From a plasmid: DNA of 64,000 bases. The notes under the pieces are model-generated. The model was not told the origin of the DNA and ran no database searches. It saw only the letters and a program-made list of their open reading frames with translations. How positions within the stretch are numbered: position 1 is the first letter of the stretch; the number at the start of each line of letters is the position of its first letter. A program made the translations under genes and the position numbers. Positions 1,273-33,625 of the stretch are shown here, piece after piece. The stretch lies in sequence record NZ_CP137560.1; one strand, 5' to 3'.

Positions 1273-1914
1273 TTAGTATTCCGTTTTCTTTTTCTCTTCC
1301 AAGTCCTTGTTCAGAAGCGTTCTCCAGTTGGTAATCAAAATGCCATGAGGATTATTCTCCGTTCGGGGAACTTTCTTCAAGCTGCCAGCAGTCACAATCT
1401 GGCGCATCAGGATATTGGTTCTTCGCTCTATTCTCTGCCTGCCATAGTAGGTGAATGAAAGTGAGTCCTTGTTGAGTTTGATGCTGTCACAGAAAATACT
1501 GCAGATGGTGGAAGTACCAATGAGATTATTGTAGAATCCCTTTTCCTTGAGCGCATTATATTGTGCCAAGCCTGTTTCGTCAATGAGATACATGGCTTTC
1601 TCCATAGTGTATCGAATGTACTTATCGTCAGGAGCGAGCGTAAAGAATAAATGATGGAACATCTCAATATCACTCTTGGCTTCCACTTCAAAGGTCTCTT
1701 CCATGGATGTTTGTCTAACCAACACTGGTACATTTCCATCCAGCACATATACTTTTTTATGGGCATCGCTGACCATGCCTCTGGCTATGATGATGCTGCC
1801 CAAGCTGATGACGATACAGCCCATGAGAAAAAGGCTGCTGATGATCATCACCATCTTAATTTTGTTTTCTACGTTTTTTAATACTGCCATAATAGTATTT
1901 TCGTTATTAATCAA
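1273..1914 (-). CDS. traK: Conjugative transposon TraK-like protein
   Basis: 213-aa ORF with an N-terminal TM, 3 bp downstream of the traJ C-terminal fragment. Size and position match TraK of CTnDOT-family elements. Confidence 0.65.
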   Translation of the reverse strand: MINNENTIMAVLKNVENKIKMVMIISSLFLMGCIVISLGSIIIARGMVSDAHKKVYVLDGNVPVLVRQTSMEETFEVEAKSDIEMFHHLFFTLAPDDKYIRYTMEKAMYLIDETGLAQYNALKEKGFYNNLIGTSTICSIFCDSIKLNKDSLSFTYYGRQRIERRTNILMRQIVTAGSLKKVPRTENNPHGILITNWRTLLNKDLEEKKKTEY

Positions 1915-1916: not shown

Positions 1917-2223
1917 TTATCCCTTTGGTAATAGGCTCATGGCACTTTGCTTGGCCGACGCAGCCACACCCTCACCGAAATTTCTGGTACTGAAGGCTGT
2001 GTCACTTTCAGGAATCATCCAAGCTGCCAGGTCTGGAACCAGGTTCAAGCACTTCAGCGAGACAATTGATGCCACAAGTAAATAGCCGCAAGTCATAAAG
2101 GCATTATGAATGTAGCCTGTCATCTCACCCTTACCAGCTGTTATCACGGTTAAGTTTTCCACCTGAACGCTGATGACAATGTCAAAAAGCAGAAGGACAT
2201 AAAAACCTACGAAGTAGAGGATA
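1917..2223 (-). pseudogene. traJ: traJ C-terminal fragment, left junction of the IME-A insertion
   Basis: Encodes ...LYFVGFYVLLLFDIV...GEGVAASAKQSAMSLLPKG*. The shared LYFVG peptide continues the traJ N-fragment at 20118-20861. Sequence upstream of 2224 is element DNA. Confidence 0.65.
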
Positions 2224-2348
2224 TTATGGCATAAAACAAAGTCGTAATAAATCAAAAGAAACACACGTTATCCAATTGATACACAGATACTTCTTTGATT
2301 TGATTTCTTTTATTTCCTTGACTGTTAAAAATCTATTTTTGGTGCATT

Positions 2349-2370
2349 TTTGTTGCACGTTTGTTACGCG
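2349..2370 (+). repeat. 21-bp direct repeat TTTTGTTGCACGTTTGTTACG, copy 1 near the IME-A left end
   Basis: Identical 21-mer at 20064-20085. Copy 1 overlaps the -33 region of a TAACTTTG (-7) promoter upstream of int at 2454. Confidence 0.6.
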
Positions 2371-2453
2371 AAATAAAATAATCTTTATAACTTTGACCTC
2401 AGAGAAACCCGAATGGGGGCATAAAATAGAAACAAATAAAAGCATATAACAGC

Positions 2454-3620
2454 ATGGGAAGACAAAAGAAAGTATCAAAACCAAAAGAGCCTGTTCGCAT
2501 TCGTCAGCGCAAGTTGAAGAATGGAAATATCAGCCTCTATCTCGACATTTATTCAGATGGTATCAGAAAATACGAGTCGCTGTCGCTCTACCTCGTTCCT
2601 GAGAAAGACCCGATTTCAAAAGACCAGAACAGACACGCTATGCAGGTGGCAAACAAGGTGAAGTCAGAAAGAATATTGGGGCTGCAGAACCGTGGCATCA
2701 AACAATGGGAGAAAATCAAGCAGGAGAATATGCCACTGCTGACTTGGCTCTGCAAATATGAGCAGTCGGACGGCAACTTTGCCAAATCCACATTGAAAGG
2801 CAGAAAGGAGATGCGCCACAAGATAGAACAGTACCTTGCCACGACTGGCGACATCAATATCTGTTTGTCAGAAATAGATGTGGATTTCTGCCGTGGCTTC
2901 GTGAAGTTTTTGAAAACGGCACATCATGGAGTGAAGAAAGACGCTACAGCTGTAATCAGTCAAGGTTGCGCCCATCATCATCAGGCGGTATTCAATGGAG
3001 CGTTGAACAAGGCGGTGCGTGAGGGTATCATAGCAAGCAATCCAATGAAACTGTTGGATGCTAAGGAGAAGCATCAGCCAGCCGAAAGCGTAAGAGAATA
3101 TCTGACCATTGACGAGTTGAAAGCCATTATGAAAGCGGACTGCGCCAACACGGAAGTAAAAAAGGCTTTTATCTTCTCTTGCTTTGCAGGATTGCGCTTG
3201 GGAGATGTACGTGCGCTCACATGGAACAAGGTGTTTCTCGCATCTGACGGAAAGACAAAATTTGTCCGCACGATCATGGAGAAGACAAACAAGCTCGTTA
3301 ATGTTCCACTATCAAAAGAGGCTCTGAACTGCCTTAATGAAAAGGAAGACCCGAACGAGCCGATATTCACTTTGCCAGGCACTCCAACGGTATGTCACGA
3401 CATCCGTAAATGGATGCAAAATGCTGATATTAAAAAGCACATCTCGTTTCACTGCTCACGGCACACCTTCGCCACGATGATGCTGACACTTGGAGTTGAC
3501 ATCTATACAACAAGCAAATTATTGGGGCATAGCAATGTCTCTACAACACAGATATACAGCAAGATAGTGGACGAGAAAAAAGTGGAGGCAGTCAACAAGG
3601 TTGATAATCTATTTGATTAG
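2454..3620 (+). CDS. Tyrosine site-specific recombinase/integrase, first of a tandem pair
   Basis: 388 aa. N-terminus MGRQKKVSKPKEPVRIRQRK..ISLYLDIY is conserved with 21086 and 53830(-). C-terminal HxxR...Y catalytic region (HCSRHTFAT...LGHSNVSTTQIYSK). Confidence 0.9.
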   Translation: MGRQKKVSKPKEPVRIRQRKLKNGNISLYLDIYSDGIRKYESLSLYLVPEKDPISKDQNRHAMQVANKVKSERILGLQNRGIKQWEKIKQENMPLLTWLCKYEQSDGNFAKSTLKGRKEMRHKIEQYLATTGDINICLSEIDVDFCRGFVKFLKTAHHGVKKDATAVISQGCAHHHQAVFNGALNKAVREGIIASNPMKLLDAKEKHQPAESVREYLTIDELKAIMKADCANTEVKKAFIFSCFAGLRLGDVRALTWNKVFLASDGKTKFVRTIMEKTNKLVNVPLSKEALNCLNEKEDPNEPIFTLPGTPTVCHDIRKWMQNADIKKHISFHCSRHTFATMMLTLGVDIYTTSKLLGHSNVSTTQIYSKIVDEKKVEAVNKVDNLFD

Positions 3621-3644
3621 CACTAATAAAAAAGGTAACTGAAA

Positions 3645-4799
3645 ATGAGTATAGAGATAAGAACAAGAGTGTTAAAAAATGGTAGTCAGTCGCTATACCT
3701 TGACTGCTATGAGAATGGTAAAAGGGAATATGAGGCATTGCATTTGTACCTTATTCCAGAGGTGAACGAAGACGCAAAGCGAGAGAACAAGAACGCCATG
3801 AAAAAGGCGGTCGCTATAAAGGCTGAAAGACTCCTTGGTATTCGTAAGGAGGCAAAGTCTCCAGATGAAACGGCATTAAGAAAGGCATCGCCTGTTTTCT
3901 ATGAATGGCTGCTTGATTATCACAAGGGATTGATTGACAGCCAAGCGTATTCTCAGAACTACATCAAGAATGTATGGAAGCTGATAGCCATCATGCACCA
4001 ATATATGAAATACAGCCATAAAAGTGGCATACGATTGATAGACTTCAATAAAAACGTATATATGGGCTTCTTGAACTACATGAGGGACATCTATGTTTCG
4101 CCAAAGTCTCCAAGCAACCCTCAGAAGTTGGCACAGTCCACCATGCACCAAATGCAGACCACACTCAACACCATATTGAACAAGGCGGTCAGAAACGGTC
4201 TGATAAGTGCAAATCCTTTTGCTTCATTGGATATAAGGGAAAGGGTCAGCAAGGCAGAAAGTAATATCGTTGCATTGACAAAAGAAGAGGTCATGTCATT
4301 GGCTTCCGTAGAAACAGGCAGTCCTGCAACTAAACAATGTTATATGTTCTGTTGCTTTACAGGTTTAAGACATAGTGACATATCCAACTTAAGATGGAAG
4401 GATATTCGCCAAACTGATGCGGGATTGGCTATCTATCTGCCTCGTATGCAGAAAACCAAGCACCCCATTCTGATACCATTAGGCAAAAAGGCATTGGAAT
4501 GGTTGCCCGACAGGGAAGATAAAAGTGAAGATAGCCTTGTGTTTAACACACCGCAAATCTGCAACTGTGACAGAGCCCTGAAACACATGGCAAAACGAGC
4601 TGGCATTACAAAGGTTCTCGGATTTCACACAAGTCGGCACACTTTTGGAACATTGGCTATCCTCGCAGGATGTGACATCTTGACTGTGAGCAAACTATTG
4701 GGTCATAAAAGTGTTAAGACAACACAGATATATGCTTCCGTAGCCATGCAGATGAGAGCGGATGCCGTTAAGCGAGTGGAAAAAGTATTTGGAAATTAG
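3645..4799 (+). CDS. Tyrosine site-specific recombinase/integrase, second of a tandem pair
   Basis: 384 aa with SLYLDCY..LHLYLIP N-domain and C-terminal HTSRHTFGT...LGHKSVKTTQIYAS. Confidence 0.9.
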   Translation: MSIEIRTRVLKNGSQSLYLDCYENGKREYEALHLYLIPEVNEDAKRENKNAMKKAVAIKAERLLGIRKEAKSPDETALRKASPVFYEWLLDYHKGLIDSQAYSQNYIKNVWKLIAIMHQYMKYSHKSGIRLIDFNKNVYMGFLNYMRDIYVSPKSPSNPQKLAQSTMHQMQTTLNTILNKAVRNGLISANPFASLDIRERVSKAESNIVALTKEEVMSLASVETGSPATKQCYMFCCFTGLRHSDISNLRWKDIRQTDAGLAIYLPRMQKTKHPILIPLGKKALEWLPDREDKSEDSLVFNTPQICNCDRALKHMAKRAGITKVLGFHTSRHTFGTLAILAGCDILTVSKLLGHKSVKTTQIYASVAMQMRADAVKRVEKVFGN

Positions 4800-4965
4800 G
4801 GAAGAAAAGAAAGGGAGTAAGGAGGATAAAATCTCTTTATTCCCTTATTTCGTATCAAATGGGTGTAAAAGTGTGAAATATCGTTATATTTTTGCCTATT
4901 AGAGCCACATAACGAATTATTATCGCAAAATTTAATGTATATTTGCAGTAAAATTCGGTGAAAAT

Positions 4966-5172
4966 ATGAAACTGAACAGAATAAAAGATACGTTGGAAGA
5001 AAAAGGCATCTCTCAGACATGGCTTGCAAAACAGCTTGGGAAGAGCTTTAGTACAGTAAACTGCTACGCCAGGAATAAATACCAGCCAGATTTGGAAACA
5101 TTGCTTGAAATATCCAAAATTCTACAAGTCGATTTGAAGGACTTGATAACAGACGAGGACGAGCGAGAGTAA
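4966..5172 (+). CDS. XRE-family HTH transcriptional regulator, candidate controller of the R-M operon
   Basis: 68 aa with ISQTWLAKQLGKSFSTVNCYARNKYQPDLETLLEISKILQV, a Cro/C1-type HTH. It ends 60 bp upstream of hsdR. Confidence 0.7.
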   Translation: MKLNRIKDTLEEKGISQTWLAKQLGKSFSTVNCYARNKYQPDLETLLEISKILQVDLKDLITDEDERE

Positions 5173-5232
5173 AAACGCCAAATGCTGGATTTTTAGAACT
5201 GGACAAAATAACTTCCGATAATAAAACGTTAT

Positions 5233-7635
5233 TTGAACATGGGCATAAGCAAAGAACTTACAGAAGAGGACATCAAGTTCCGCTATATCAACGAAGCCAT
5301 CACAAGCAAGGGATGGTCAAAGGATAGTATATTCATGGAACAGAAGGTTAAATTTACTGACGGTAAAATTAGCCTTCATGGTAATCTTGTGCATAGAGAG
5401 AAACCGAAGTTTGCCGACTATGTACTTTATGCAAATAAGGCAACACCCATTGCTATTGTAGAAGCAAAGGATGCCAATCATTCTGTTTCTCATGGATTGC
5501 AACAAGCCATGACCTATGCCCAAATGCTTGATGTGAAGTTTGCATACAGTTCAAATGGTGAAGGTTTTGCCGAACATGACTTCTTGACAGGCAGGGAACG
5601 CACTTTTGCTATGAACGAATTTCCAACAAAAGAAGAACTTGTCGAAAGATATAAAAATGAGGCTAACGATGGAAACGGACTTAACGAACAAGAGCTGGCT
5701 ATTATAGAGCAGCCTTTTTGCACTGGTCAGAATATATTTCCGCCACGATATTATCAGCGCAATGCAGTAAACCGCACAGTTGGTGCCATTGCCAAAGGAC
5801 AAAACCGTGTGCTCCTTGTCATGGCAACTGGCACAGGCAAGACATATACTGCATTTCAGATTGTATGGCGTTTGCTTAAAAGTGGTTTGAAGAAGAAAGT
5901 GTTGTATCTTGCAGACCGAAACATATTGGTTGACCAATCCATACAGCAGGATTTCAAGCCATTAGAAAAGGTGACACACAAGATTGACTACTCAAAAGAT
6001 AAGAACCACTTGGAAGAACTTGGCTCTTATCAAGTGTTCTTTGCACTCTATCAACAGTTGATTGGACAGAATGATGCCAAAAACTATAAGGAGCTGTTTC
6101 CTAATCCAGACTATTTTGACCTTGTTATCGTTGATGAGTGTCATAGAGGTAGCGCAAAGGATGATAGCAACTGGCGAAACATCTTGGAATACTTTTCTTC
6201 GGCTACTCATATAGGTATGACTGCCACACCTAAAGAAACAAAATATCAGTCAAGTATTGGCTACTTTGGTGAACCAGTCTATACTTACAGTCTTAAAAAC
6301 GGAATTGAGGACGGTTTCCTTGCTCCTTTCAAGGTTATCAACATCACAACGAACATCGGTGACGAGTGGAGACCGACAAAGGGACAAAAGGATATATACG
6401 GCAACGAGATAGAAGACCGCATTTATAATAACAGCGACTATGATTATAACATTGTCATAGAAGATCGTATAAGGGAAGTTGCGAAAGAGATAACCAACTA
6501 TCTGAAAAGTACAGATCGCATGGCTAAGACCATAGTGTTCTGTGCTGATGAAACTCATGCGGAACGTATGCGTATGGCTTTGGCTAATGCCAATGCTGAC
6601 ATGTGCAAGAAAAATCCCGACTATGTGGTTCGTATAACTGGTAGTGACGAATACGGAAAAGGCAAGTTGGATTATTTCATTTCTGTTGCCGAGAAATATC
6701 CTGTCATAGCAACTACAAGTAAGTTGCTTTCAACAGGTGTTGATTGCAAAATGACAAAACTGATTGTGCTTGACCAACAAATCGGCTCTATGACAGAGTT
6801 CAAACAAATAATTGGTCGTGGCACTCGTCTTCGTGAGAAAGAAGGAAAGACATACTTCACAGTAATGGACTTCCGCAACGTAACACGATTGTTTGCTGAC
6901 CCTGATTGGGATGGACCGATTGAGATAGACCCGAATTATCCGCCTAAACCACATATTTGTCCTGTATGTGGACAGAATCCATGCGTGTGTCCCAAACCGA
7001 CACCAGAACCCTGCCCAGTATGTGGTCAGATACCATGTATTTGCCAACAACCGCCCAAACTGCCTAAGCCAATAGTCAACTCGGACGGTTGTACAGTAAA
7101 GGTCATTAACAAGGTCGTTTCTGTCTATGACACAAATGGTAAGTTGCTTCGCACGGAAAGCATTACCGACTATACAAAGAAAAGTATCATAGACACATAC
7201 GCTACGATTGATACATTCACTTCCAAGTGGCAAGAAACCAAGAAAAAGTCAGATATTGCTGAAATGCTTAAAGACAGTGGTATTGATCTTGCAGCATTGA
7301 AGCACGACCAAGACATGGACGATGTGGATGATTTCGATTTCATCTGCCATATAGCCTACGGCAAGAAAACACTTACACGACATGAGCGTGCCGAACAAGT
7401 GAAGAAACGAGACATATTCAGCAAGTATGGTGAACAGGCACGACTTGTGCTTGAAGCCCTGTTGGATAAGTACACCAAGGAAGGTGTGTCTGAATTGGAA
7501 AGCCTTACTGTGCTTGAAAATGACCCATTCCGCAAATTGGGCTCAAAGGCAAACATCGTGAAGTTCTTTGGTGGCAAGCAAGGCTATCTTGATGCCGTAA
7601 AGGAACTGGAACAATACATATATAATATAGCATAA
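5233..7635 (+). CDS. hsdR: Type I restriction enzyme R subunit
   Basis: 800 aa. N-terminal PD-(D/E)xK (ADYVLYANKATPIAIVEAKD). Helicase motifs LLVMATGTGKTYTAFQ (Walker A) and DLVIVDECHRG (DEAH). Unusual Cys-rich CPVCGQxPCxC x2 insert near the C-terminus. Confidence 0.93.
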   Translation: MNMGISKELTEEDIKFRYINEAITSKGWSKDSIFMEQKVKFTDGKISLHGNLVHREKPKFADYVLYANKATPIAIVEAKDANHSVSHGLQQAMTYAQMLDVKFAYSSNGEGFAEHDFLTGRERTFAMNEFPTKEELVERYKNEANDGNGLNEQELAIIEQPFCTGQNIFPPRYYQRNAVNRTVGAIAKGQNRVLLVMATGTGKTYTAFQIVWRLLKSGLKKKVLYLADRNILVDQSIQQDFKPLEKVTHKIDYSKDKNHLEELGSYQVFFALYQQLIGQNDAKNYKELFPNPDYFDLVIVDECHRGSAKDDSNWRNILEYFSSATHIGMTATPKETKYQSSIGYFGEPVYTYSLKNGIEDGFLAPFKVINITTNIGDEWRPTKGQKDIYGNEIEDRIYNNSDYDYNIVIEDRIREVAKEITNYLKSTDRMAKTIVFCADETHAERMRMALANANADMCKKNPDYVVRITGSDEYGKGKLDYFISVAEKYPVIATTSKLLSTGVDCKMTKLIVLDQQIGSMTEFKQIIGRGTRLREKEGKTYFTVMDFRNVTRLFADPDWDGPIEIDPNYPPKPHICPVCGQNPCVCPKPTPEPCPVCGQIPCICQQPPKLPKPIVNSDGCTVKVINKVVSVYDTNGKLLRTESITDYTKKSIIDTYATIDTFTSKWQETKKKSDIAEMLKDSGIDLAALKHDQDMDDVDDFDFICHIAYGKKTLTRHERAEQVKKRDIFSKYGEQARLVLEALLDKYTKEGVSELESLTVLENDPFRKLGSKANIVKFFGGKQGYLDAVKELEQYIYNIA

Positions 7636-7649
7636 AATAGAAACAAAAT

Positions 7650-9161
7650 ATGAGTTTATCAAATTTCGTAAAACGAGTACGCAATATAATGCGCAATGAT
7701 GCCGGTATCAACGGTGATGCGCAACGCATAGAACAAATGGCGTGGATGCTGTTTTTGAAAGTCTATGACGAGAAAGAGAATGACTGGGAGTTGGACGATG
7801 ATGATTACAAGTCTATTATTCCAGAAGAATGCCGTTGGCGCAACTGGGCGCATGACGATGGAAGCGGTAAAGCCTTGACTGGTGATGAGCTACTTTCGTT
7901 TGTCAACAACACATTGTTTGTGGAACTCAAAAACATAGAGATAACACCAACTACCCCTATCCGTCAGGCGATTGTAAAGACCACATTTGAGGATGCCAAC
8001 CAATATATGAAAGACGGAGTTCAACTTCGTCAAGTGCTGAATGTGATTGACGGTTTGAACCTTGGTGACTATGAGGAAAGTCATGCTTTCGGTGAGATAT
8101 ACGAGACTATTCTCAAAGAAATGCAGTCGGCTGGTTCTTCTGGTGAGTTCTACACCCCAAGAGCCTTAACCGAATTTATGGCAGAGATAGTCAATCCGCA
8201 GATTGGTGAGAAAATGGCAGACTTCGCTTGTGGTACAGGAGGTTTCATCACAAGTTGGTTGGGTGAATTGGACAAGAAGGTAAAGACTGCAGAAGACCGC
8301 AAAGAGTACAATCAGTCTGTATTTGGCATAGAAAAGAAACAGTTCCCATATATGTTATGTGTAACAAACCTGTTGCTGCATGGCATTGATACACCATTGG
8401 TATATCACGACAACTCGCTTACAAAAGATGTACTCAACTATACAGACGGAGACAAGTTTGATGTTGTGTTGATGAACCCACCATACGGTGGTAACGAGAA
8501 ATCGGATGTCAAGTCACACTTCCCTTCAGATATGCGCAGTAGCGAGACTGCCGACCTCTTCATGGTGCTTATCATGTATCGCTTGAAGAAGAATGGTCGT
8601 GCAGCGGTCATTGTCCCAGACGGTTTCCTGTTTGGAGCAGACAACACAAAGATAGCCATCAAGACCAAGCTGCTTAGAGATTTCAACTTGCATACCATTA
8701 TCCGTTTGCCAGGCAGCATCTTTGCGCCCTACACTTCCATTGCCACGAACATTCTATTCTTCGACAATACCAGTGCGGAGGGTGCTCCAGAGGGCTATTC
8801 TACAAAGGAAACGTGGTTCTATCGTTTGGATATGCCAGAGGGTTACAAGCATTTCTCCAAGACAAAGTCCATGAAGTCGGAACATTGCGACCCAATCCGT
8901 GAGTGGTGGAACGACCGTAAGGAGATTATTATTGCTGATGGTGACGAGAAATCTCGTTGCTATTCAGTTGAAGACCTTATCGCCACCGATTGCAACTTCG
9001 ACTTGTGCAAGTTCCCGAAAGAGGATGAAGAAATCTTGCCTCCTGCCGAACTGCTTGCCGACTATTTCAAGAAGCGCAAAGCTCTTGATCATGAAATTGA
9101 TAAGACATTGGCGGAGATACAGCGTATCTTGGGAATAAATGTAAATGTGGACGAATTGTAA
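7650..9161 (+). CDS. hsdM: Type I R-M N6-adenine DNA methyltransferase M subunit
   Basis: 503 aa with an HsdM N-domain and the catalytic motif VLMNPPYGG. It lies 15 bp after hsdR. Confidence 0.93.
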   Translation: MSLSNFVKRVRNIMRNDAGINGDAQRIEQMAWMLFLKVYDEKENDWELDDDDYKSIIPEECRWRNWAHDDGSGKALTGDELLSFVNNTLFVELKNIEITPTTPIRQAIVKTTFEDANQYMKDGVQLRQVLNVIDGLNLGDYEESHAFGEIYETILKEMQSAGSSGEFYTPRALTEFMAEIVNPQIGEKMADFACGTGGFITSWLGELDKKVKTAEDRKEYNQSVFGIEKKQFPYMLCVTNLLLHGIDTPLVYHDNSLTKDVLNYTDGDKFDVVLMNPPYGGNEKSDVKSHFPSDMRSSETADLFMVLIMYRLKKNGRAAVIVPDGFLFGADNTKIAIKTKLLRDFNLHTIIRLPGSIFAPYTSIATNILFFDNTSAEGAPEGYSTKETWFYRLDMPEGYKHFSKTKSMKSEHCDPIREWWNDRKEIIIADGDEKSRCYSVEDLIATDCNFDLCKFPKEDEEILPPAELLADYFKKRKALDHEIDKTLAEIQRILGINVNVDEL

Positions 9162-9198
9162 AATGTGGAACGGTGTTCCACAAATCTAAAAGATTGGC

Positions 9199-10224
9199 AT
9201 GGAGAATAAAGGTTTGACAAACATAAATGATGCTGCCTATCAGAAGTTGATAGACAACATAACCACGCTATGGGGTGAGGCGAAGTCAAAAGCCATTGCT
9301 GCGGTCAATACGGAATTGCTTGATGCCAACTGGCAAACAGGAAAGTATATTGTTGAATTTGAACAGGGTGGTAAACAAAGAGCAGAATATGGCAAAAGGT
9401 TACTTGTAAACCTTGCAAAGGATTTGACAGCAAGAAACGGAAAAGGTTTTAACCGAACAAACCTTACCTATATGCGCAAGTTGTACTTGGCTTTCCCAAA
9501 ATGTGGGACACTGTCCCACAAATTGACATGGAGCCATTATTATGAACTGTTGAAGTGTGATAATGCGCTTGAAATGCAGTTCTATTATAAGGAATCCATC
9601 AAGGAATGTTGGAAAGTTAGGGAACTAAAAAGACAGATGAAAAGTTGTCTGTTTCAGCGACTTGCACTAAGCACAGACAAGGCTGGAGTTCTTTCTTTGG
9701 CAAACGAGGGGCATCAAGTACAAACACCGCAAGACATCATCCGTGACCCTTTCGTGCTTGAATTTGCAGGACTTCCCAAACAGAAACGCTATAAGGAGAG
9801 TGACTTAGAAAAGGCTCTTAAAGACCACATGGAGCAGTTCCTTTTGGAAATGGGACGTGGTTTTGCATTTGTGGGCAGACAATACTCCATGCAGATAGGA
9901 AGCCGACAGTTCAAGGTGGATTTGGTGTTCTACCACTGTATCTTGAAGTGCTATGTGTTGATTGATTTGAAGCGAGCAGAGATAAAGCATGGTGATATTG
10001 GGCAGATGAACCTCTACTTGAACTACTTCAAAACAGAAGTGTGTCAACCTGACGATAATCCACCCATTGGCATAGTTTTGGGAGCAAGAAAAGACGAACT
10101 TCTGATGGAGTATGCCTTGGAAGGCATAACCAATCAATTGTTTGTAGCACGTTACCAACTCTATTTGCCAAAGCGTGAAGAACTGCAAGCGCAACTTGAC
10201 AAATTATTGGACGAAGCAGAGTAA
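9199..10224 (+). CDS. YhcG-like DUF1016 / PD-(D/E)xK nuclease-family protein embedded in the hsd operon
   Basis: 341 aa with the C-terminal pattern ...FKVDLVFYHCILKCYVLIDLKRAEIKHGDIGQMNLYLNYF, typical of DUF1016 proteins often found between hsdM and hsdS. Confidence 0.65.
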   Translation: MENKGLTNINDAAYQKLIDNITTLWGEAKSKAIAAVNTELLDANWQTGKYIVEFEQGGKQRAEYGKRLLVNLAKDLTARNGKGFNRTNLTYMRKLYLAFPKCGTLSHKLTWSHYYELLKCDNALEMQFYYKESIKECWKVRELKRQMKSCLFQRLALSTDKAGVLSLANEGHQVQTPQDIIRDPFVLEFAGLPKQKRYKESDLEKALKDHMEQFLLEMGRGFAFVGRQYSMQIGSRQFKVDLVFYHCILKCYVLIDLKRAEIKHGDIGQMNLYLNYFKTEVCQPDDNPPIGIVLGARKDELLMEYALEGITNQLFVARYQLYLPKREELQAQLDKLLDEAE

Positions 10225-10264
10225 CAACAATAAAATAAGGACATTTCGATTTTATAGAATAATT

Positions 10265-10771
10265 ATGAAAAGTAACATTGGAATACTAATCATTTTGTCT
10301 ATTGTACTGACTATGTGCAGTATCAATATAAATGCACAAACGGTTGGATATACATATCGACCTTTGGCTGCCGAGGGATGCAATATGAAATATAGCGTTG
10401 CAAAGCAAGATACGGCATATTACATTATCGCAACCGTAAAGTCAGACAGACTGAATTTCCTGAAAGAATCAACCATGTTGTTGAAAACATTCGATGGTGA
10501 AGTTATTAAACTTTATGGTTCTCAGATTGGTAGCGGTTCCGAAACGGCAGGTATTGTTTCTGGCAATATAGTCCTTCCAGTGACAGAAATCAGTTCTACA
10601 GCTCAATTCAAGATAAGTCCACAACAATTTGAGTTGTTGAAAAAAGGCGTGGCTAAGATAAGGTTATCTACCATACCTATTGAGCATGAGCGGACATTTG
10701 CCAAAGATAAAATAGGCAAGAAACTTTATCAGTTCTTCTTGAAGCAGAAGAATAAGGACAATGATTTCTAA
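10265..10771 (+). CDS. Small secreted protein/lipoprotein of unknown function inside the R-M operon
   Basis: Internal start MKSNIGILIILSIVLTMCSININAQ gives a signal peptide with a lipobox-like LTMC. It sits between the DUF1016 gene and hsdS. Confidence 0.45.
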   Translation: MKSNIGILIILSIVLTMCSININAQTVGYTYRPLAAEGCNMKYSVAKQDTAYYIIATVKSDRLNFLKESTMLLKTFDGEVIKLYGSQIGSGSETAGIVSGNIVLPVTEISSTAQFKISPQQFELLKKGVAKIRLSTIPIEHERTFAKDKIGKKLYQFFLKQKNKDNDF

Positions 10772-10786
10772 CGATAGAAAATTACA

Positions 10787-12343
10787 ATGAACGGAAAGCA
10801 ATTAAAGAATAGCATATTACAATGGGCGATACAGGGAAAACTTGTGCCGCAAGACCCTAATGACGAACCAGCAAGCGTTTTGCTTGATAAGATTCGCCAA
10901 GAGAAAGAACGCTTGATCAAGGAGAAGAAAATCAAGCGTGACAAGAACGCATCCATTATCTACCGTGGTGAGGACAATTCCTATTATGAGAAGATGCTCG
11001 CCACAGGGGAGGTGAAGTGCATAGATGAGGAAGTGGCGTTTGATATACCACAGGGGTGGGAATGGACTCGTATAGGCAATATATTCAACCATACAAGCGG
11101 AAAGCAACAGAGTAGTAGCAATAAAGGTGGTGGAACCCCACAAAAGTTCATAACGACCTCTAATCTATATTGGGGACACTTTATCCTTGATAATGTAAAG
11201 GTTATGAATTTTACTGACGAAGAGATTAAGACTTGTTCGGCTACAAAAGGAGATTTGCTTGTTTGTGAAGGTGGTGCTGGTTATGGACGTTCAGCAATAT
11301 GGAATGAAGATTATGATATTTGTCTTCAAAATCATGTTCATAGATTGCGTCCGTGTGTTAGCGGCATATGTGAATATGTATATCATTTCATTTACCTATT
11401 GAAAGAAAGCAACAATTTGGCATCTGTTGGAACTGCCATGCCTGGACTGTCTGCAAATCGTTTGAAAGGATTACTTTTGCCTTTTCCACCTCTATCAGAA
11501 CAAAGAAGAATTGTGGCAAAGTTAGCTGAACTATTACCACAAATAGAGAAATATAATAATGTTCAGAACAAATTGGACGAACTGAACACTACTATAAAGG
11601 ATTGTCTTAAAAAGAGCATCTTACAAGAGGCAATACAAGGTAAGCTCGTTCCGCAACTTGCAGAAGAAGGCACAGCGCAAGAACTGCTTGAACAAATAAA
11701 GACAGAGAAGCAGAAACTCGTTAAAGAGGGCAAACTAAAGAAGTCTGCCCTCAAAGATTCCGTTATCTTCAAAGGTGACGATAACAAGTATTGGGAGAAG
11801 TCAACTGAATGTATGGAGTGTATTGACGATAAAATTCCATTTGAAATACCTTCAACATGGTGTTGGGTTAGGCACAATCAATTGTTTGAAATATCAGGCG
11901 GTTCACAGCCTCCTAAATCTCAGTTTGTTGATAGTCCTAAATCAGGATATATAAGACTGTATCAAATCAGAGATTATGGTTCAAATCCTATGCCTGTTTA
12001 TATACCACAAGAAAAAGCAAATAAAATAACAAAAGAAGGTGATATTATATTAGCAAGGTATGGCGGTTCTTTAGGTAAAGTCTTTTGGGCTAAAGATGGA
12101 GCATATAATGTAGCGATGGCAAAGGTAATTCCTCTTTTTGACTCTGAGTTCGTGAACAAACAGTATTTATTCTTGTTTTATCAGTCAAGCATATACCAAT
12201 ATTTAGTAAAAGATCATTCTAGAAGTGCCCAAGCAGGATTTAACAAAGACGATTTGAAGGATTTGTTTTTTCCATTGCCTCCTTTAGAGGAACAATCTCG
12301 AATTGTTGAAATATACAAGTCTGTAACAAGTATTATGAGTTGA
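10787..12343 (+). CDS. hsdS: Type I R-M specificity subunit, expressed copy with two target-recognition domains
   Basis: 518 aa with two TRDs separated by the conserved coiled-coil LVPQLAEEGTAQELLEQIKTEKQKLVKEGKLKK and the C-terminal LPPLEEQSRIVE motif. Confidence 0.9.
   Translation: MNGKQLKNSILQWAIQGKLVPQDPNDEPASVLLDKIRQEKERLIKEKKIKRDKNASIIYRGEDNSYYEKMLATGEVKCIDEEVAFDIPQGWEWTRIGNIFNHTSGKQQSSSNKGGGTPQKFITTSNLYWGHFILDNVKVMNFTDEEIKTCSATKGDLLVCEGGAGYGRSAIWNEDYDICLQNHVHRLRPCVSGICEYVYHFIYLLKESNNLASVGTAMPGLSANRLKGLLLPFPPLSEQRRIVAKLAELLPQIEKYNNVQNKLDELNTTIKDCLKKSILQEAIQGKLVPQLAEEGTAQELLEQIKTEKQKLVKEGKLKKSALKDSVIFKGDDNKYWEKSTECMECIDDKIPFEIPSTWCWVRHNQLFEISGGSQPPKSQFVDSPKSGYIRLYQIRDYGSNPMPVYIPQEKANKITKEGDIILARYGGSLGKVFWAKDGAYNVAMAKVIPLFDSEFVNKQYLFLFYQSSIYQYLVKDHSRSAQAGFNKDDLKDLFFPLPPLEEQSRIVEIYKSVTSIMS
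11731..11770 (+). repeat. 40-bp perfect inverted repeat in the hsdS central conserved region, plus-strand arm
   Basis: CAAACTAAAGAAGTCTGCCCTCAAAGATTCCGTTATCTTC. Its reverse complement is found exactly at 13971-14010 and extends to about 60 bp with 3 mismatches. Confidence 0.85.
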
Positions 12344-12930
12344 TAGACAACAGCCCTGTTTGTATAGACGAGTTTTTGCCGTTCCAAATACCCGAAACAT
12401 GGGCTTGGTGCAAGGTCAAAGACCTGTTGGAAATACAAACAGGGGCTTCGTTCAAAAAAGAACAAGTAAACGCAAATAAAAAAGGCATTAGAATATTGCG
12501 TGGGGAAAATATTTTGCCCAATAAGTATATATTCAAAAATAATGATGTATTTGTGTCAGATGAGTTTGTCAATACGAATACCCTTCTGAAGAAGAATTGC
12601 ATCATTACTCCTGCTGTAACCAGTTTGGAGAATATTGGTAAAATGGCTGTGATAGAAAAAGACTACAATAATGTTAGTGCTGGCGGTTTTGTATTCATCT
12701 TTAGCCCATACATTCAAGACTTTAATCACTCCTTGTTACTTGCGTATTTTCTTCAAAGTCCATTTCTGATAGAGGCTATGCGAGGAATAACCAAGAAGTC
12801 TGGTGCTGCTTTTTATAATCTTGGGAAAGAACGACTGAAAGAGCTGTATCTACCATTGCCTCCAATGGCAGAACAAAGTAGAGTAGTAGCCAAAATAAAA
12901 GAGGTTTTATCAAGTATTATGAGCAGATAG
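12340..12930 (+). pseudogene. Silent half-hsdS cassette with a single TRD and no proper start codon
   Basis: Opens with TTG immediately at the hsdS stop and ends LPLPPMAEQSRVVAKIKEVLSSIMSR. The 13-bp direct repeat CAAGTATTATGAG occurs at both the hsdS and cassette ends. Confidence 0.65.
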
Positions 12931-13022
12931 GGAGCGAAATAACTGAGATTGACCTTCCTTTTGAGTTTCCAAGTTCTTGGTCTATTGCTCGATTAAATGC
13001 AGTTTGCCAACTTACAGACGGC

Positions 13023-13415
13023 TTGAAAACCACAGGCAAGCAGTGCTTGTTAGATGCTAAATACTTACGTGGTAAAAGTTCTGAAACTATTCTAGAACAT
13101 GGTAAATTTGTATATAAAGGTGACAATATAATGCTTGTGGACGGTGAAAACTCTGGTGAAGTTTTCATCGTTCCACAAGACGGTTATATGGGTAGTACTT
13201 TCAAGCAATTATGGATAAGTTCCTCTATGTACGAACCTTATATTTTGGCTTTCATACAGTTCTACAAAGAAACTTTGCGCAATTCTAAGAAAGGTGCAGC
13301 TATACCACACCTCAACAAGGAATTGTTTTATGGGCTTATTATTGGTATTCCGCCACTACAAGAGCAGAAAAGAATCTTCCAAAAGATAGAGGATTCATCA
13401 CAATTGCTCAAATAG
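13023..13415 (+). pseudogene. Partial hsdS TRD cassette
   Basis: 130-aa fragment ending GIPPLQEQKRIFQKIED (HsdS conserved end). It converges on and overlaps the minus-strand hsdS by 18 bp. Confidence 0.55.
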
Positions 13416-14762
13416 AGTTTCAATTCTTTCGACAATGCGTTTCTGCTCATTTAAAGGAGGTAAAGGTATCAAGTGCTCAACTAATTTGACACGTGATATG
13501 TTTGGTTGGGCACCACCTTCACCTTTCTTGATAAATGTATCTCGACTTGCCATTAAGAAATAAAACAAGAACCAATTATAAACAATATAGGGAGTACAGC
13601 CACAACACGCTTGATTGGTAGTTAATTCCTTGCCTACAATAGCCAACTTTCCTATTGTAGCTCCATACATAGCAATAAGAACGTCACCTATTTTATTCAT
13701 ACGTAGAGAGCATTCTTGAAAAGCTCTCTGCGTTATTCTTTCTTCAGTATCACATATGACACCATTGTTCAACTCCCCTGTTTTAAGCCACAAAATATTG
13801 CCTCCATAATAATCTTGGTTGCTGCGCTGAGGTGTAGAACCTGCGCCCCAATCTCCAATCTGTCCCATTCTTGTCCAAGTCCAACTATTAGGGATTTCAA
13901 AGGGAATTAGCTCTGTTATATCCAAGCATTTTTTGCCTATCTGCTCATAATACTTGTTATCGTCACCACGGAAGATAACGGAATCTTTGAGGGCAGACTT
14001 CTTTAGTTTGCCCCCTTTTACGAGTTTCAGCTTTTCTTCTTTTATCTGTTTGAGCAGATCTTGGGCTGTACCTTCTTCGGCAATTTGCGGAACGAGTTTG
14101 CCTTGGATGGCTTCTTGCAGAATAGCCTTCTTCAAGCGTTGGTACATATTAGAATTTAACTTATTAAGTTCTTCTTGCTTATTGCTGTAAATACCAAGAA
14201 AATGTGTTAACTCTGTAATGTTCGCAACAATTCTTTCCTGTTCATTTATTGGTGGTAAAGGGAACAACAAAGTTTCCCAATTACCCCTATTGATTATAGG
14301 GGTTGCTGTTCCTGTAGCCTTATCCATTATTGCCAACCTAAAGTATTCTGAATGCAAAACTATATGGACAAACTCCACATTACACAAATAGGGCGTTATA
14401 GAATTTATCTGCTGATTAAAAGTAACAGGCTTGTCTGTTATGGCGCATTTACCAATAGAACCTCCAATGCAGACTTGCAAAATAGTATTCTTTGGTACAA
14501 TACGCCCATAATCAACTCCAATATCTGACAATCCCTGTGTTACACTTACAATTTTGGAATTTAGTATGTTTGCAGGACCTAAAAATGGAATATAATCACC
14601 AAAGTATTCAGGATGAGATTTGGATGGTGTTGTACCTGTTTCTGTTTTTCCAACCTCAACTAATCTACACCATTCCCACCCCTGGGGTACCTCAAACGGT
14701 ATCTCCTCATCAATACATTTCACCTTCCCCGTAGCAAGCCACTTCTCATAATAGGAACTCAT
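13398..14762 (-). CDS. hsdS: Inverted second hsdS copy with two TRDs, partner for shufflon inversion
   Basis: 454 aa. N-terminus SSYYEKWLATGKVKCIDEE and central AILQEAIQGKLVPQIAEEGTAQDLLKQIKEEKLKLVKGGKLKKSALKDSVIF are near-identical to the plus-strand hsdS but on the opposite strand. Confidence 0.85.
   Translation of the reverse strand: MSSYYEKWLATGKVKCIDEEIPFEVPQGWEWCRLVEVGKTETGTTPSKSHPEYFGDYIPFLGPANILNSKIVSVTQGLSDIGVDYGRIVPKNTILQVCIGGSIGKCAITDKPVTFNQQINSITPYLCNVEFVHIVLHSEYFRLAIMDKATGTATPIINRGNWETLLFPLPPINEQERIVANITELTHFLGIYSNKQEELNKLNSNMYQRLKKAILQEAIQGKLVPQIAEEGTAQDLLKQIKEEKLKLVKGGKLKKSALKDSVIFRGDDNKYYEQIGKKCLDITELIPFEIPNSWTWTRMGQIGDWGAGSTPQRSNQDYYGGNILWLKTGELNNGVICDTEERITQRAFQECSLRMNKIGDVLIAMYGATIGKLAIVGKELTTNQACCGCTPYIVYNWFLFYFLMASRDTFIKKGEGGAQPNISRVKLVEHLIPLPPLNEQKRIVERIETLFEQL
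13971..14010 (-). repeat. 40-bp inverted repeat arm inside the minus-strand hsdS
   Basis: Exact reverse complement of 11731-11770. Confidence 0.85.
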
Positions 14763-14822
14763 AGAACAAATCCATGCCTATTTATTAGGACAACTTAATG
14801 TTTCACTAATAAACGAATAGAA

Positions 14823-15629
14823 ATGGAATTAGACAAATTTGAAGAGTTCCTAAGCCAAGGCAATATGGCTAAGAACACGATTTCGGCATATCTGTATGCT
14901 GTGAAGGAGTTTGGCTCTCGACACAAAGAGTTGAACAAGAGAAACCTGTTGATTTACAAGACCTACTTGATTGAGACTTACAAGCCCAAGACGGTGAACC
15001 TCCGTATTCAGGCGATGAACAAGTACCTTGTATTTGTAGGCAAGACGAAACTCCGCTTGAAGTCGGTCAAGGTGCAGCAACGTTCTTATTTGGAGAATGT
15101 CATCAGCAATGCCGACTACACCTTCCTGAAGAACAAGTTGAAGAAGGAAGACAACTTGGAGTGGTACTTTGTGGTGCGTTTCTTGGCTGCGACTGGTGCC
15201 AGAGTGAGCGAACTTGTGCAAATCAAAATTGAGCATGTGCAAGTAGGCTATTATGACATCTACACCAAGGGTGGCAAGATACGGCGTATCTATATCCCCA
15301 AGACATTGCGCACGGAAACAGAAAAGTGGTTGCAGACACTCAACCGTACAAGTGGCTATCTCTTTCTCAATCGCTTTGGCGAGCGCATCACGACAAGAGG
15401 CATATCACAGCAGTTGAAGAACTATGCGGTGAAGTATGGCTTGAATGAGAAAGTGGTTTACCCTCACTCATTCCGCCATCGTTATGCCAAAAATTTCTTG
15501 GAGAAGTTCAACGACATTGCCCTGCTTGCAGACCTTATGGGGCATGAAAGCATCGAAACGACACGTATCTATCTACGAAGAAGCAGCATTGAGCAACAAG
15601 AGATAGTTGACAAAGTGATAACCTGGTAA
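14823..15629 (+). CDS. Tyrosine recombinase (XerC/D-like) adjacent to the hsdS cassettes, likely hsdS invertase
   Basis: 268 aa with ATGARVSELVQIKIEHV..., HSFRHRYAKNF..LMGHESIETTRIYL and the catalytic R..H..R..Y pattern. It lies immediately downstream of the inverted hsdS. Confidence 0.88.
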   Translation: MELDKFEEFLSQGNMAKNTISAYLYAVKEFGSRHKELNKRNLLIYKTYLIETYKPKTVNLRIQAMNKYLVFVGKTKLRLKSVKVQQRSYLENVISNADYTFLKNKLKKEDNLEWYFVVRFLAATGARVSELVQIKIEHVQVGYYDIYTKGGKIRRIYIPKTLRTETEKWLQTLNRTSGYLFLNRFGERITTRGISQQLKNYAVKYGLNEKVVYPHSFRHRYAKNFLEKFNDIALLADLMGHESIETTRIYLRRSSIEQQEIVDKVITW

Positions 15630-15761
15630 TCGGAGCATATTCTATATCTTTTGATATGTTATCCATGCTATTAAACTATGCAAACGAGTATATGCTTTTT
15701 ACAACAAGTAGAATTGATTATCAGCGTTTTGCATTACCTTTGCACTCAAAAGGAAATACGC

Positions 15762-16709
15762 ATGGGACTATTCAAGAAGATAAAAGACATATTCAGCAAC
15801 GACAAAGGCAAGGAGACAAACACGCAAGAGAAAGTTTCCTTGCCTTCTTCTATAAATGTACCTCAACAGTCCATCAAGCAGCCTTTGGTAATGCCTGGTG
15901 TTACAGAGGTTATAAAGGCAAGGTCATATCTGAAAGCAAATGACACAGAACAGACTAAATGCCAATACGAGAGTGCGGTTCAAAAAGGATATTCATTGAA
16001 CCTTGAACCCTATAATTGGCTACTTCGCCATTATACAAGCAAAGAACAATGGAGCGATGCCAAGCGTGTTCTATTGCTTGTCCCTGCAAAATTCAGCCAA
16101 GATGCGCTTGTTGTCGAATTTAGGGAAGTAATAAGGCAACGAGAAGACAAACTACCCAAACAAGCCAATCTCCACAGAAACATTACCACCAAAGATACAT
16201 TGGCAAACCGATACAAAAGTTTGATTGCTCAACTGCCCGAATTTGATTTCTATACAAATGGAAACGACACATTGTTTTCAGAAGACGTTCCAGTGTGCCA
16301 TCAGATAGAAGATATAATCAGCCATATAGAGAATGAACTACGCAAGGCAAAGGTTGCCGAAAAAAGCAAGGATTACATCACTGCAACCAATATCTATGAA
16401 GAGCTGATTGCCAATGGCTATTGGAAGCCAGAGCCTTACAACCGTCTGCTTTATATCTATGATAAGGCAGGGCTTACAAATGGTATAAAGGAGTTGCTTA
16501 TTCTTGCAATAAGTTTCTTTGAAAATCAGCAAAAGAAACAGAAACAGGAATTGTTACGCCTTGCCGACAAGTACAAAAGCAGAGCCTATGCAGAGGCGAA
16601 AATAAATCAAGGAAAGACAGTGGCATATTTCGATGGTTTCTTTGAAATATACATGCCTTTCCCTGATATTGATGTCTGGAAGCGAATACTCGCTGATACT
16701 ACCGCTTAA
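15762..16709 (+). CDS. Hypothetical protein, possibly TPR-like
   Basis: Internal start MGLFKKIKDIFS within ORF 15678-16709. No recognisable catalytic motif. It converges on the MobV gene. Confidence 0.4.
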   Translation: MGLFKKIKDIFSNDKGKETNTQEKVSLPSSINVPQQSIKQPLVMPGVTEVIKARSYLKANDTEQTKCQYESAVQKGYSLNLEPYNWLLRHYTSKEQWSDAKRVLLLVPAKFSQDALVVEFREVIRQREDKLPKQANLHRNITTKDTLANRYKSLIAQLPEFDFYTNGNDTLFSEDVPVCHQIEDIISHIENELRKAKVAEKSKDYITATNIYEELIANGYWKPEPYNRLLYIYDKAGLTNGIKELLILAISFFENQQKKQKQELLRLADKYKSRAYAEAKINQGKTVAYFDGFFEIYMPFPDIDVWKRILADTTA

Positions 16710-18135
16710 TGCCCGAACTCTTTTTGGGATAGTGTTTGCTGTGGGCGAATCTCATGCAGCGTCTGGCAAAGCTGAAAATATCCTCGTCCTTATCCCTCCA
16801 AGGCAATTCCGAATTGGAGCCACCGCCACCTCCCGACTGCGTGATGCTTGTTGCCCCATTGATGCCCTCAATGAACATCTTGACGGCTGTGCCAAGTACA
16901 TCTTTGAAACGCATATCGCACATATCTTCAATAATGGTGTTCTCTGCCATTTTCTTGGCTTCGGGTACATTGGCGCAAATTCTACTGCTCATCGTCAGCA
17001 GTTCTTGAAAACTGCCTGCAAGGATAGAGGCTTGGGCGTATGTTTGCAATGTCCGTGAAGTCTGCTCCTGCACGACACGCAAAGTTTCAGCCTCAGACTT
17101 CTGCGCCCTTGTCATGGCTCTGAACTCGGCAAGGGCTTCATCGGCTGCACTCAGTTTTTCTCGTTTGTCCGTCAGTTTGAACTCCAAGGTGGACAACTGA
17201 CTTTTGAGCCGTTCCAGTTCTTTTGACAACTCGGAATGTTCGCCATTCTGTTGTTCCAACAATTTCTCAACCTCATGAATTTTATTCTCCACCTCGGACT
17301 TCTGGTGAGTGAGGTTTTCTATCATCGTTTTCAGACCTTTAACGGCATTCTCCTTTCTGCGAATGTCAAGTTCCAGTTTGCCATTTGCGATTTCCAACTC
17401 ACGGCTTTCGGCTTGGAGTTGTCTATACCATTCGTCACGAGGGACATGCTGGGCATTGGTAGCCGAAACTGATTCGCCACGTACCAAGCCCCACTTTTTG
17501 TTGACCTCTGCCAAGTAGTCGTGGATAGCATCCAGTTTGTTTGCGTCACCACCAAAAGTATCTCGGTATTTGATACGCATCTTCTGTTTCTTTTCATCGT
17601 ACATAATTGGCGTGACAAGGCAATGGATATGCGGTGAAGACTCGTCAAGATGAACGGAAAAGTCTATGATGTTGTCTTCGCCCCATGCATCGGCAACAGC
17701 CTTGTAGATGTCCTTTGCCCACAATTCTATCTCCGCTTTGCGCTTGACATGACTGTTGTCTGCGCCTTTCGCTCGCTCCACATTTTGGTCTCCGAAAGCC
17801 ATTTCTCGCATTCTGTCGGCATCGCCCGAAAATATCATGTTGCAGGCAATGCGATATTTGGGCGTTTCAAGCCCTTTGTTAGGGTCTTCCGCACCAGTGA
17901 CTTCCAAACGGTCTTGAAACCGCTCCAAAATGGGCTTAGAAGAGCCGAGAGGTACAATCTTACCGCCCTTGACTATCTCAAAGTTGAGATGCGCACGGCT
18001 CTTGTCGTAGTTAAACTTCTTGTTGGAGGCTTTTGCTTCCCATTGGGATTCCGTCCAACGCCTCTGATGTTCGTTATCTTCACCTGCCGAAAACGACTTG
18101 ACGGCTTGTTGGTGAAACACTTGGTATTCTGGCAT
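16699..18135 (-). CDS. MobV/Mob_Pre-family relaxase (plasmid recombination enzyme) with a poly-Gly/WRDKDED C-terminal tail
   Basis: 478 aa. Motif III HLDESSPHIHCLV (HxDExxPHxH), a long coiled-coil middle, and the C-terminal SGGGGGSNSELPWRDKDEDIFSFARRCMRFAH shared with the MobB-type relaxases of IME-B and IME-C. Confidence 0.8.
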   Translation of the reverse strand: MPEYQVFHQQAVKSFSAGEDNEHQRRWTESQWEAKASNKKFNYDKSRAHLNFEIVKGGKIVPLGSSKPILERFQDRLEVTGAEDPNKGLETPKYRIACNMIFSGDADRMREMAFGDQNVERAKGADNSHVKRKAEIELWAKDIYKAVADAWGEDNIIDFSVHLDESSPHIHCLVTPIMYDEKKQKMRIKYRDTFGGDANKLDAIHDYLAEVNKKWGLVRGESVSATNAQHVPRDEWYRQLQAESRELEIANGKLELDIRRKENAVKGLKTMIENLTHQKSEVENKIHEVEKLLEQQNGEHSELSKELERLKSQLSTLEFKLTDKREKLSAADEALAEFRAMTRAQKSEAETLRVVQEQTSRTLQTYAQASILAGSFQELLTMSSRICANVPEAKKMAENTIIEDMCDMRFKDVLGTAVKMFIEGINGATSITQSGGGGGSNSELPWRDKDEDIFSFARRCMRFAHSKHYPKKSSGIKR

Positions 18136-18409
18136 AATGTTATTTCTAAGATGGGGTAATGAAATTTATAAAACGAGCTTGCTCTGGTGTCCTCCTAAGG
18201 GCTTGCCCGATGGAGCATAATTCGGTTGGTGATAACCATACCGAGGATTATGTTCCCCATCTACATTATGCGTACATATAGGCAAGCCTCTTCTGTTGTG
18301 TACCATCACTGCTCTAAAACGGTTTTGATGAAGTCTTGGCATTGCGTTCTTACTGGCAAACTGACATCATGAAGGCAAATGCCAAGACTAAAAATGAATG
18401 AACGGTAGG

Positions 18410-19371: not shown

Positions 19372-19373
19372 GA

Positions 19374-20063: not shown

Positions 20064-20085
20064 TTTTGTTGCACGTTTGTTACGT
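20064..20085 (+). repeat. 21-bp direct repeat, copy 2, near the IME-A right end
   Basis: Identical to 2349-2370. Confidence 0.6.
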
Positions 20086-23424: not shown

Positions 23425-23444
23425 GACATACAGCAGGGAGCGAA

Positions 23445-33621: not shown

Positions 33622-33625
33622 GATG

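Follow-up and report, generated by a model that had tools for sequence, protein, structure and literature searches.

The locus described here raises the question of how a mobile element came to lie inside a conjugation gene, and what the small differences between the two copies of the repeat at its ends record. The window, a 64,000-nucleotide stretch of a plasmid (sequence record NZ_CP137560.1), holds a gene of a gut Bacteroidales conjugative element that is broken at an imperfect repeat, TACTTCGTrGG. A preliminary description of this DNA took the non-identity of the two repeat copies as coupling sequences left by an integration of the NBU/CTnDOT type. Our analysis indicates that the interrupting element, an integrative mobilizable element (IME) that we call IME-A, was very probably integrated by its own tyrosine integrase(s) into a preferred site, the LYFVG codons of a T4SS gene of a Segatella/Bacteroidales conjugative element, and it assigns a different meaning to the mismatches.

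The host gene of IME-A is a conjugation-pore gene, of which three pieces are present in the window; in alignment these pieces tile one intact homolog and overlap only at the cores. The pieces and the neighbouring gene that identifies their position are as follows.

1273-1914, minus strand: traK of the host conjugative element (TIGR03781, 263 bits against a cut-off of 152), which fixes the traJ position by synteny
1917-2216, minus strand: C-terminal piece of the traJ-like (VirB6-position) gene, running from the LYFVG codons of the core to the stop and aligning to residues ~290-389 of intact homologs
20146-20838, minus strand: middle piece of the traJ-like gene, spanning WW to LYFVG, by alignment to intact homologs
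34587-34778, minus strand: N-terminal fragment of the traJ-like gene, by alignment to intact homologs

The fragments end at the core, and not at 2223 and 20142 as first proposed. The translation of the open reading frame at 1917-2264 (minus strand) contains ...CHNILYFVGFYVLLLFDIV..., and that of the frame at 20118-21065 (minus strand) terminates in ...HFYGAMLYFVGLFRYVTR and a stop codon. The traJ-like gene lies directly upstream of a bona fide traK, with a DUF5045 gene on its other side and a TraG-type ATPase gene further upstream. The preliminary description had placed the insertion in traJ; an integrative mobilizable element in the gene at the traJ position is indeed what was found, but the identity of that gene has to be qualified. 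The TraJ profile TIGR03782 gave an intact homolog (P0060) 27 bits (E 1.9e-6; profile positions 32-303) against a cut-off of 290, a score below that for membership of the curated TraJ family (TIGR03782/PF07863), and Pfam detected no TraJ domain (PF07863) in the gene fragments or in one intact homolog. We use 'traJ' loosely, for a gene that occupies the traJ position and whose homology to TraJ is only remote.

A reconstructed traJ-like protein, used as the search query, retrieved thousands of relatives of ~389 aa. We compared the junctions with 82 intact homologs, 80 from reference genomes and two from the fetched loci L002 and L003, which came from Segatella, Bacteroides, Phocaeicola, Parabacteroides, Muribaculaceae and others. 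The preliminary description had named the comparison with uninterrupted homologs as the test of its junction, and all 82 pass once through the LYFVG codons: each carries GAMLYFVGFYVLLLF a single time, and GAMLYFVGFYVLLLFDIV is read once through these codons in 80/80 reference-genome homologs and in L002 and L003. At the nucleotide level, TACTTCGT occurs once in 66 of the 82, the other 16 having the single- or double-base variants TATTTCGT, TACTTTGT, TATTTTGT and TACTTCAT, and the base 3' of the core is unconstrained. An uninterrupted copy of the window's exact traJ-like allele was not found by protein search or among the fetched loci, the nearest intact genes being ~90% identical at the protein level. 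The database proteins that are 100% identical to the window's allele (P0013-P0018) are all truncated at LYFVG by some IME.

The interrupting DNA has the organization of an integrative mobilizable element, with its integrase at one end and its own relaxase without mating-pore or coupling-protein genes. Its main features are as follows.

2217-20153: IME-A, 17,937 bp including one core copy, bounded by alignment to intact homologs
2217-2453, minus strand: non-coding P arm of attP, from the integrase start to the core, with a 23-mer at 2346-2368 and a GATTATTTTATTTCG motif echoing the start of the P' arm
2454-3620, plus strand: IntA1, tyrosine integrase with Arm-DNA-bind_5, SAM_5 and catalytic domains (PF00589 + PF13102 + PF17293)
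3645-4799, plus strand: IntA2, second tandem tyrosine integrase (PF00589 + PF13102 + PF17293), 33% identical to IntA1
5233-15629: cargo, a type I restriction-modification system (hsdR, hsdM, DUF1016 nuclease, opposed hsdS genes)
14823-15629: 268-aa recombinase in the cargo
16699-18135, minus strand: MobV-family relaxase (Pfam Mob_Pre; NF041497 MobV, 152 bits against a cut-off of 100)
19374-19712, minus strand: HTH_17/excisionase-family DNA-binding protein of 112 aa at the right end, candidate directionality factor
20062-20084, minus strand: P' arm 23-mer near the end of the element, CGTAACAAACGTGCAACAAAAAT in gene orientation and the same sequence as 2346-2368, candidate arm-type integrase site

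Among the ORFs scanned within 2217-20153 there was no transposase gene and no T4SS or coupling-protein gene; the ORFs at 15678-16709 and 19063-19458 had no family match, and that at 18410-19066 had weak HTH matches only. The exact 23-mer is present near both ends in direct orientation, ~130 bp in from the left and ~60 bp in from the right. It was exact in 23/25 relatives that carry it (L004-L028; L007 has one mismatch), and, unlike the 23-mer, the sequence between it and the core varies among relatives. We infer from this conservation that the 23-mers near both ends are candidate arm-type sites for the Arm-DNA-bind_5 domains. The motif AGATTATTT is also present within the P arm. In the cargo, the opposed hsdS genes lie beside the 268-aa tyrosine recombinase. 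The window (10787-15629) and the related locus L014 (16263-20310) differ by inversion or rearrangement of the hsdS blocks, which suggests a phase-variable specificity shufflon.

The repeat itself was confirmed at both IME-A junctions. In the window TACTTCGTRGG occurs at just two places, each on the minus strand and exactly at a break of the traJ-like gene, compared with 0.02 expected, and none of 100 shuffles contained two matches. The two copies are as follows.

2206-2216, minus strand: left 11-mer copy TACTTCGTAGG, with the 8-bp core at 2209-2216 and a target-derived base at 2208 ('r' = A in gene orientation)
20143-20153, minus strand: right 11-mer copy TACTTCGTGGG, with the core at 20146-20153 and an element-derived base at 20145 ('r' = G)

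On the plus strand the sequence reads CCTACGAAGTAGAG at 2206-2219 and CCCACGAAGTAAAG at 20143-20156. Positions 2217-2219 are GAG (CTC in gene orientation) and derive from the element, and positions 20154-20156 are AAG (CTT in gene orientation) and derive from the target, so that in gene orientation the left junction is ctC TACTTCGT A GG and the right junction ctT TACTTCGT G GG. Although two 11-mer copies are present as first reported, the strictly identical stretch is only the 8 bp TACTTCGT (ACGAAGTA on the plus strand) at 2209-2216 and 20146-20153. Read against the parental sequences reconstructed below, the '11-bp core' is 8 bp of shared identity, one parental base and a GG that is coincidentally common to attP and attB. 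The 8-bp TACTTCGT stands at both element ends and, in 66 of the 82 intact homologs, at the uninterrupted attB, as the shared core of an IME should.

The origin of each flanking base was assigned from a census of junctions in other assemblies, collected by a scan for the 23-mer and from previously gathered loci, which comprised 62 left junctions (element to C-terminal fragment) and 78 right junctions (middle fragment to element), with 13 same-contig pairs. Whatever the target, the element flank GCCATAATATC CTC TA was present in 62/62 left junctions and the element-side GGATTATT in 78/78 right junctions. The codon before the core is the element's CTC at left junctions; at right junctions it varies as the targets do (CTC 37, CTT 9, CTG 7, CTA 6, TTG 5 and TTA 4). 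The base after the core is mixed at left junctions of traJ sites (C16 G15 A13 T7; n=51) and usually G at the right junctions of such sites (54/68; C7 A4 T3); in the same-contig pairs, the right-junction base is G in 12/13 and the left-junction base differs in 8/13. Because CTC is constant at left junctions, G is usual at right junctions and the target-side base is variable, the CTT and the A of the window are assigned to the target and its CTC and G to the element. Both differences between the window's repeat copies lie outside the identical 8 bp, which is what a simple crossover inside TACTTCGT predicts. By this assignment, the two mismatches are the first parental bases that flank the exchanged segment and not heteroduplex, and this copy of IME-A would have no heterologous coupling sequence, the partners being identical across the core. 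The coupling-sequence interpretation of the mismatches is not supported by this comparison, in which both bases fit a parental origin (CTC 62/62; G 54/68, and 12/13 pairs).

The two partners can be reconstructed from the junctions. In gene orientation, attP would read ...GCCATAATATC CTC TACTTCGT G GGATTATTTCG... and attB ...GCAATG CTT TACTTCGT A GGTTTTTATG..., and the reconstruction agrees with the earlier statement that the two sites are only partly homologous outside the core. An exchange inside the shared TACTTCGT would yield the observed junctions, ATG CTT-core-G GGATT and ATATC CTC-core-A GGTTT. Conversely, excision, with the HTH_17 protein as the presumed excisionase, should restore an intact traJ-like gene, an expectation that follows from the core being coding and from attP mimicking the codons. 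The predicted circle joint is GCCATAATATCCTC-TACTTCGT-G-GGATTATTTCGC and the predicted repaired site is GCAATGCTT-TACTTCGT-A-GGTTTTTATGTCC. The predicted circle joint CCATAATATCCTCTAYTTYGTNGGATTATTTCG had 0 matches in metagenome and viral contigs, and no attP-like joint occurred in 231 fetched loci; with neither a circle joint nor an uninterrupted copy of the exact allele, attP and the attB of this lineage are reconstructed rather than observed.

The most likely overlap within the core is TACTTCG, of 7 bp. This assignment rests on two features of the sequences, namely that attP contains a dyad, ATCC-TC-TACTTCG-TG-GGAT, centred on TACTTCG, and that TACTTCG is the sole stretch shared with a sister subfamily, which has the same 23-mer and an arm beginning with GAGG and joins the gene at TACTTCG/GAGG. 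At one sister-subfamily junction (L175, ~5290), the Leu codon and the core are separated by an extra G, as ATGCTC G TACTTCGGAGG, which may reflect either an imprecise event or an assembly error. Variation inside the core bears on where the strands are effectively exchanged. In the pair L130/L209, the right junction reads CTG TACTTCGT G and the left CTC TATTTCGT T; the position-3 variant and the post-core base each stay with the right-hand flank, which places the crossover 5' of position 3 in the core. On backbones with TATTTCGT in most of their intact genes, 9/9 right junctions show TACTTCGT. In ~16/21 informative junctions, the leading TA is where the effective crossover falls, an asymmetry of ~16 to 5 in small numbers. 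When the target does not match attP throughout the core, the bases from position 3 on would usually be kept with the right-hand flank, with the effective crossover at the leading TA, and we infer that TA is the edge of the 7-bp overlap at which homology matters.

The secondary sites point in the same direction. About 85% of the junctions lie in one codon block of one gene and ~15% at non-traJ sites, and TA is present at 140/140 junctions, secondary sites included. At the left junctions of secondary sites, 8/11 depart from TACTTCGT after CTC TA, five of these eight from position 3 or 4 (TAAGTATT, TATCCACA, TACTAAAA, TACCTGTC and TAAATCGT), while the right junctions keep TACTTCGTG in 8/10. Secondary sites that share only TA at their left junctions hint at a CTnDOT-like tolerance of heterology at the family level. 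At five of the ten non-traJ targets seen from the right (L110, L155, L159, L171 and L188), ATG-YTN directly precedes TAC, as at the traJ site, which suggests that the integrase reads ATGYTNTAC on the left side of the target.

Other explanations of the repeat were weighed against these observations. In one of them, which follows the heterology seen in CTnDOT, the overlap would be repeat positions 3-9 (CTTCGTr), with 'r' inside the strand exchange; each integration would then produce a one-base heteroduplex that is resolved by replication, and a single base from the previous target would travel with the element as its coupling sequence. Such a scheme would account for the hypervariability of the element-side 'r' (G54 C7 A4 T3) beside an invariant GGATTATT, including its variation within otherwise identical arm haplotypes, and for non-G bases that often mismatch the present target, as a memory of the previous site would predict. 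It also accords with the tolerance of heterology to the right of TA at secondary sites and with that of IntDOT in the second strand exchange (PMC2817482). However, all four traJ right junctions with a target-like core variant (position 3 or 6) have G at 'r', which indicates that positions 3-6 and position 9 are not inherited as one block and that 'r' is not co-inherited with core variants; in addition, left junctions are not enriched for G (15/51), the attP dyad is centred on TACTTCG and not on CTTCGTr, and the sister subfamily is identical to the target only through position 7. The non-G bases, which make up 14/68 right junctions, did not track the resident target in a test with the 21-nt upstream haplotype, haplotypes that are not unique to lineages, and a strict placement of 'r' outside the overlap leaves these 14 unexplained unless the position is simply polymorphic. 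On the junctions at hand, an overlap of CTTCGTr explains the variability of 'r' and fits the other data less well than a TACTTCG overlap, and we regard it as unlikely.

A short direct repeat flanking a large insertion could also be a target-site duplication made by a transposase and rendered imperfect by later mutation. This carries practically no weight here, since no transposase gene lies inside 2217-20153 and more than 100 independent insertions, in genes that have diverged, are flanked by this sequence. Moreover, where the target is not traJ, the right junction keeps TACTTCGTG (8/10) and the left has unrelated target sequence, so the repeat belongs to the element and was not copied from the target; judged by the junction census, a transposase duplication is already refuted. 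The two tyrosine integrases and the constant flanks (62/62 and 78/78) agree with the initial view of the repeat as an integrase attachment site. It is likewise highly improbable that the split gene is spurious, whether through a chimeric assembly or through homologous recombination between diverged traJ copies. The three related tandem-integrase elements in the window could indeed confuse assemblers, but complete genomes have identical junctions, as do dozens of independent assemblies from different pipelines, and the three gene fragments tile a single intact homolog with no overlap beyond the cores. Integration of IME-A by its own integrase(s), with exchange in TACTTCG, is the reading that we carry forward.

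Near-identical IME-A elements occupy the same traJ-like site in many other assemblies. The exact IntA1 protein is present on 40 blocks of the collection searched, and 10/10 places listed adjoin the traJ C-terminal fragment, traK and traM on different backbones; the identical HTH_17 protein is on 39,421 collection blocks, complete genomes included. A search of PLSDB plasmids with the whole element gave no match. The IME-A family is very abundant and apparently undescribed, and it targets the traJ-like gene.

In the window, the same gene is occupied a second time.

20839-34593: IME-B, a second tandem-integrase element of 13,755 bp, with the 7-bp core CCACCAA (plus strand) at 20832-20838 and 34587-34593

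IME-B splits the traJ-like gene at the GPFWW/ILQ codons. In L014, which belongs to the same lineage and is 97-98% identical to the window, the IME-B site is empty, with the 7-bp overlap TTGGTGG, and the middle and N-terminal fragments are contiguous in L014-L018 and in P0015. A 12-mer, GCTGATTTACAG (20896-20907 and 34528-34539), was considered as the IME-B core and rejected, since the resulting 430-aa gene would have 41 extra residues relative to intact homologs; the 12-mer is an internal subterminal direct repeat of IME-B, and CGTTTTTGTCCCTCG likewise lies near both ends. P0015 is the window's own allele with IME-A and without IME-B, as are L014-L018, and in P0013-18 and L001 another IME occupies the LYFVG site of this allele. 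One allele of the conjugative element with a different IME at LYFVG, or with IME-A and without IME-B, indicates turnover, and different IMEs in an identical host allele indirectly support IME excision.

Several further features lie in the window and in other contigs. Double occupancy of the traJ-like gene recurs in other genomes, as L021, L024 and L026 have a second integrase-bearing element just upstream of an IME-A-type junction, with a short traJ middle fragment left. The window contains a third tandem integrase pair within 47785-53830 (51361-52677 and 52658-53830, minus strand), whose IntC1 is 50% identical to IntA1; an HTH_17 gene (50904-51221) adjoins this pair, and at 49031-49053 the IME-A 23-mer recurs with 78% identity. 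Small ORFs and an RHS-repeat ORF (44640-45434) are flanked by a 249-nt direct repeat (42404-42652 and 45434-45682), whose copies are 97% identical and spaced by 3,030 bp. In the sister contig L001 (1-5712), which belongs to the same lineage of conjugative elements, an element with three consecutive tyrosine recombinases (346, 325 and 410 aa) splits the TraG-type ATPase gene.

The boundaries of IME-A are fixed to the base, and the predicted attP and repaired attB sequences are given here. Several related IME lineages in Segatella, Bacteroides, Phocaeicola and Parabacteroides use the LYFVG codon block as a common landing site, and annotators will repeatedly meet 'truncated hypothetical proteins' of ~300 aa at this block. 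An insertion, predicted to be precisely reversible, that disables the pore gene of the element needed for mobilization is a plausible control point between parasite and helper in gut Bacteroidales gene flow, and the natural secondary sites provide a data set on the core homology needs of this integrase class. An abundant family, a site common to sister IMEs, double occupancy of one gene and secondary sites together make a moderately interesting pattern. More speculatively, and in a form that we hold to be doubtful as a whole, a very abundant Bacteroidales IME superfamily might use the VirB6-position traJ-like gene of its helpers as the primary site, with at least three arm types sharing TACTTCG and a second hotspot at the WW codons; excision might gate helper conjugation, and ordered exchange might be CTnDOT-like with homology at TA only. 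If this were true, the mating pore of the helper would be rebuilt only when the IME(s) excise.

The proposed integration of IME-A can be compared with several known systems. NBU1 and NBU2, with IntN1 and the Orf2x excision factor, are, like IME-A, Bacteroidales IMEs with a tyrosine integrase, their own relaxase and an excision helper, and in both cases attP and attB share a short common core. In NBU1 and NBU2, this core is 13-14 bp of identity (14 bp in NBU1) at the 3' end of a tRNA gene (tRNA-Leu for NBU1). In IME-A the identity is 8 bp and lies within a T4SS gene that codes for protein and belongs to a different mobile element; the att site of IME-A is not NBU1-like. NBU1 and NBU2 also resemble IME-A in favouring a single conserved gene and entering secondary sites now and then (PMC5704250). 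The relaxase of IME-A is MobV, compared with MobP in the NBUs (Table 2 of PMC5704250), and IME-A has two tandem integrases.

In CTnDOT, the 7-bp overlap consists of the conserved left dinucleotide GC and a variable 5-bp coupling sequence (PMC2817482), and IntDOT and the IME-A integrases have the same Bacteroidetes domain architecture at the Pfam level. The IME-A family recalls CTnDOT in that a left dinucleotide (TA instead of GC) is present at every junction and the following bases can differ, and in both systems imperfect inverted repeats flank the overlap and arm sites, in IME-A candidate ones, are subterminal (PMC2817482). However, the coupling sequence of CTnDOT normally differs between element and target, whereas the preferred target of IME-A matches attP across the whole core and therefore needs no heterology. 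IME-A also differs from CTnDOT in not being conjugative.

Integration into conjugation genes is known from Firmicutes IMEs, which enter conserved genes of Tn5252-superfamily ICEs such as traG (PMC5704250). IME-A resembles these in having its specific attB within a conjugation gene carried by a potential helper ICE, and it differs in phylum, in T4SS type (MPF-B), in a target that is a VirB6-position traJ-like gene and not the coupling protein, and in its unrelated integrases. The CTnBST-type integrase of GA1 T6SS ICEs is sequence-selective and leaves a 7-bp repeat at both junctions, with the consensus tTnCcAA (PMC8102008), but it inserts throughout genomes, compared with ~85% in one codon block for the IME-A family. 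Earlier work has noted tyrosine-recombinase elements inserted within tra regions of Bacteroides (PMC10865816), and a search of the open-access literature, itself weak evidence, found no described traJ-targeting Bacteroidales IME with attB in the LYFVG codon block. Site-selective Bacteroides IMEs and IMEs in conjugation genes are thus already known, and in this company the att site of IME-A is an ordinary integrase attachment site.
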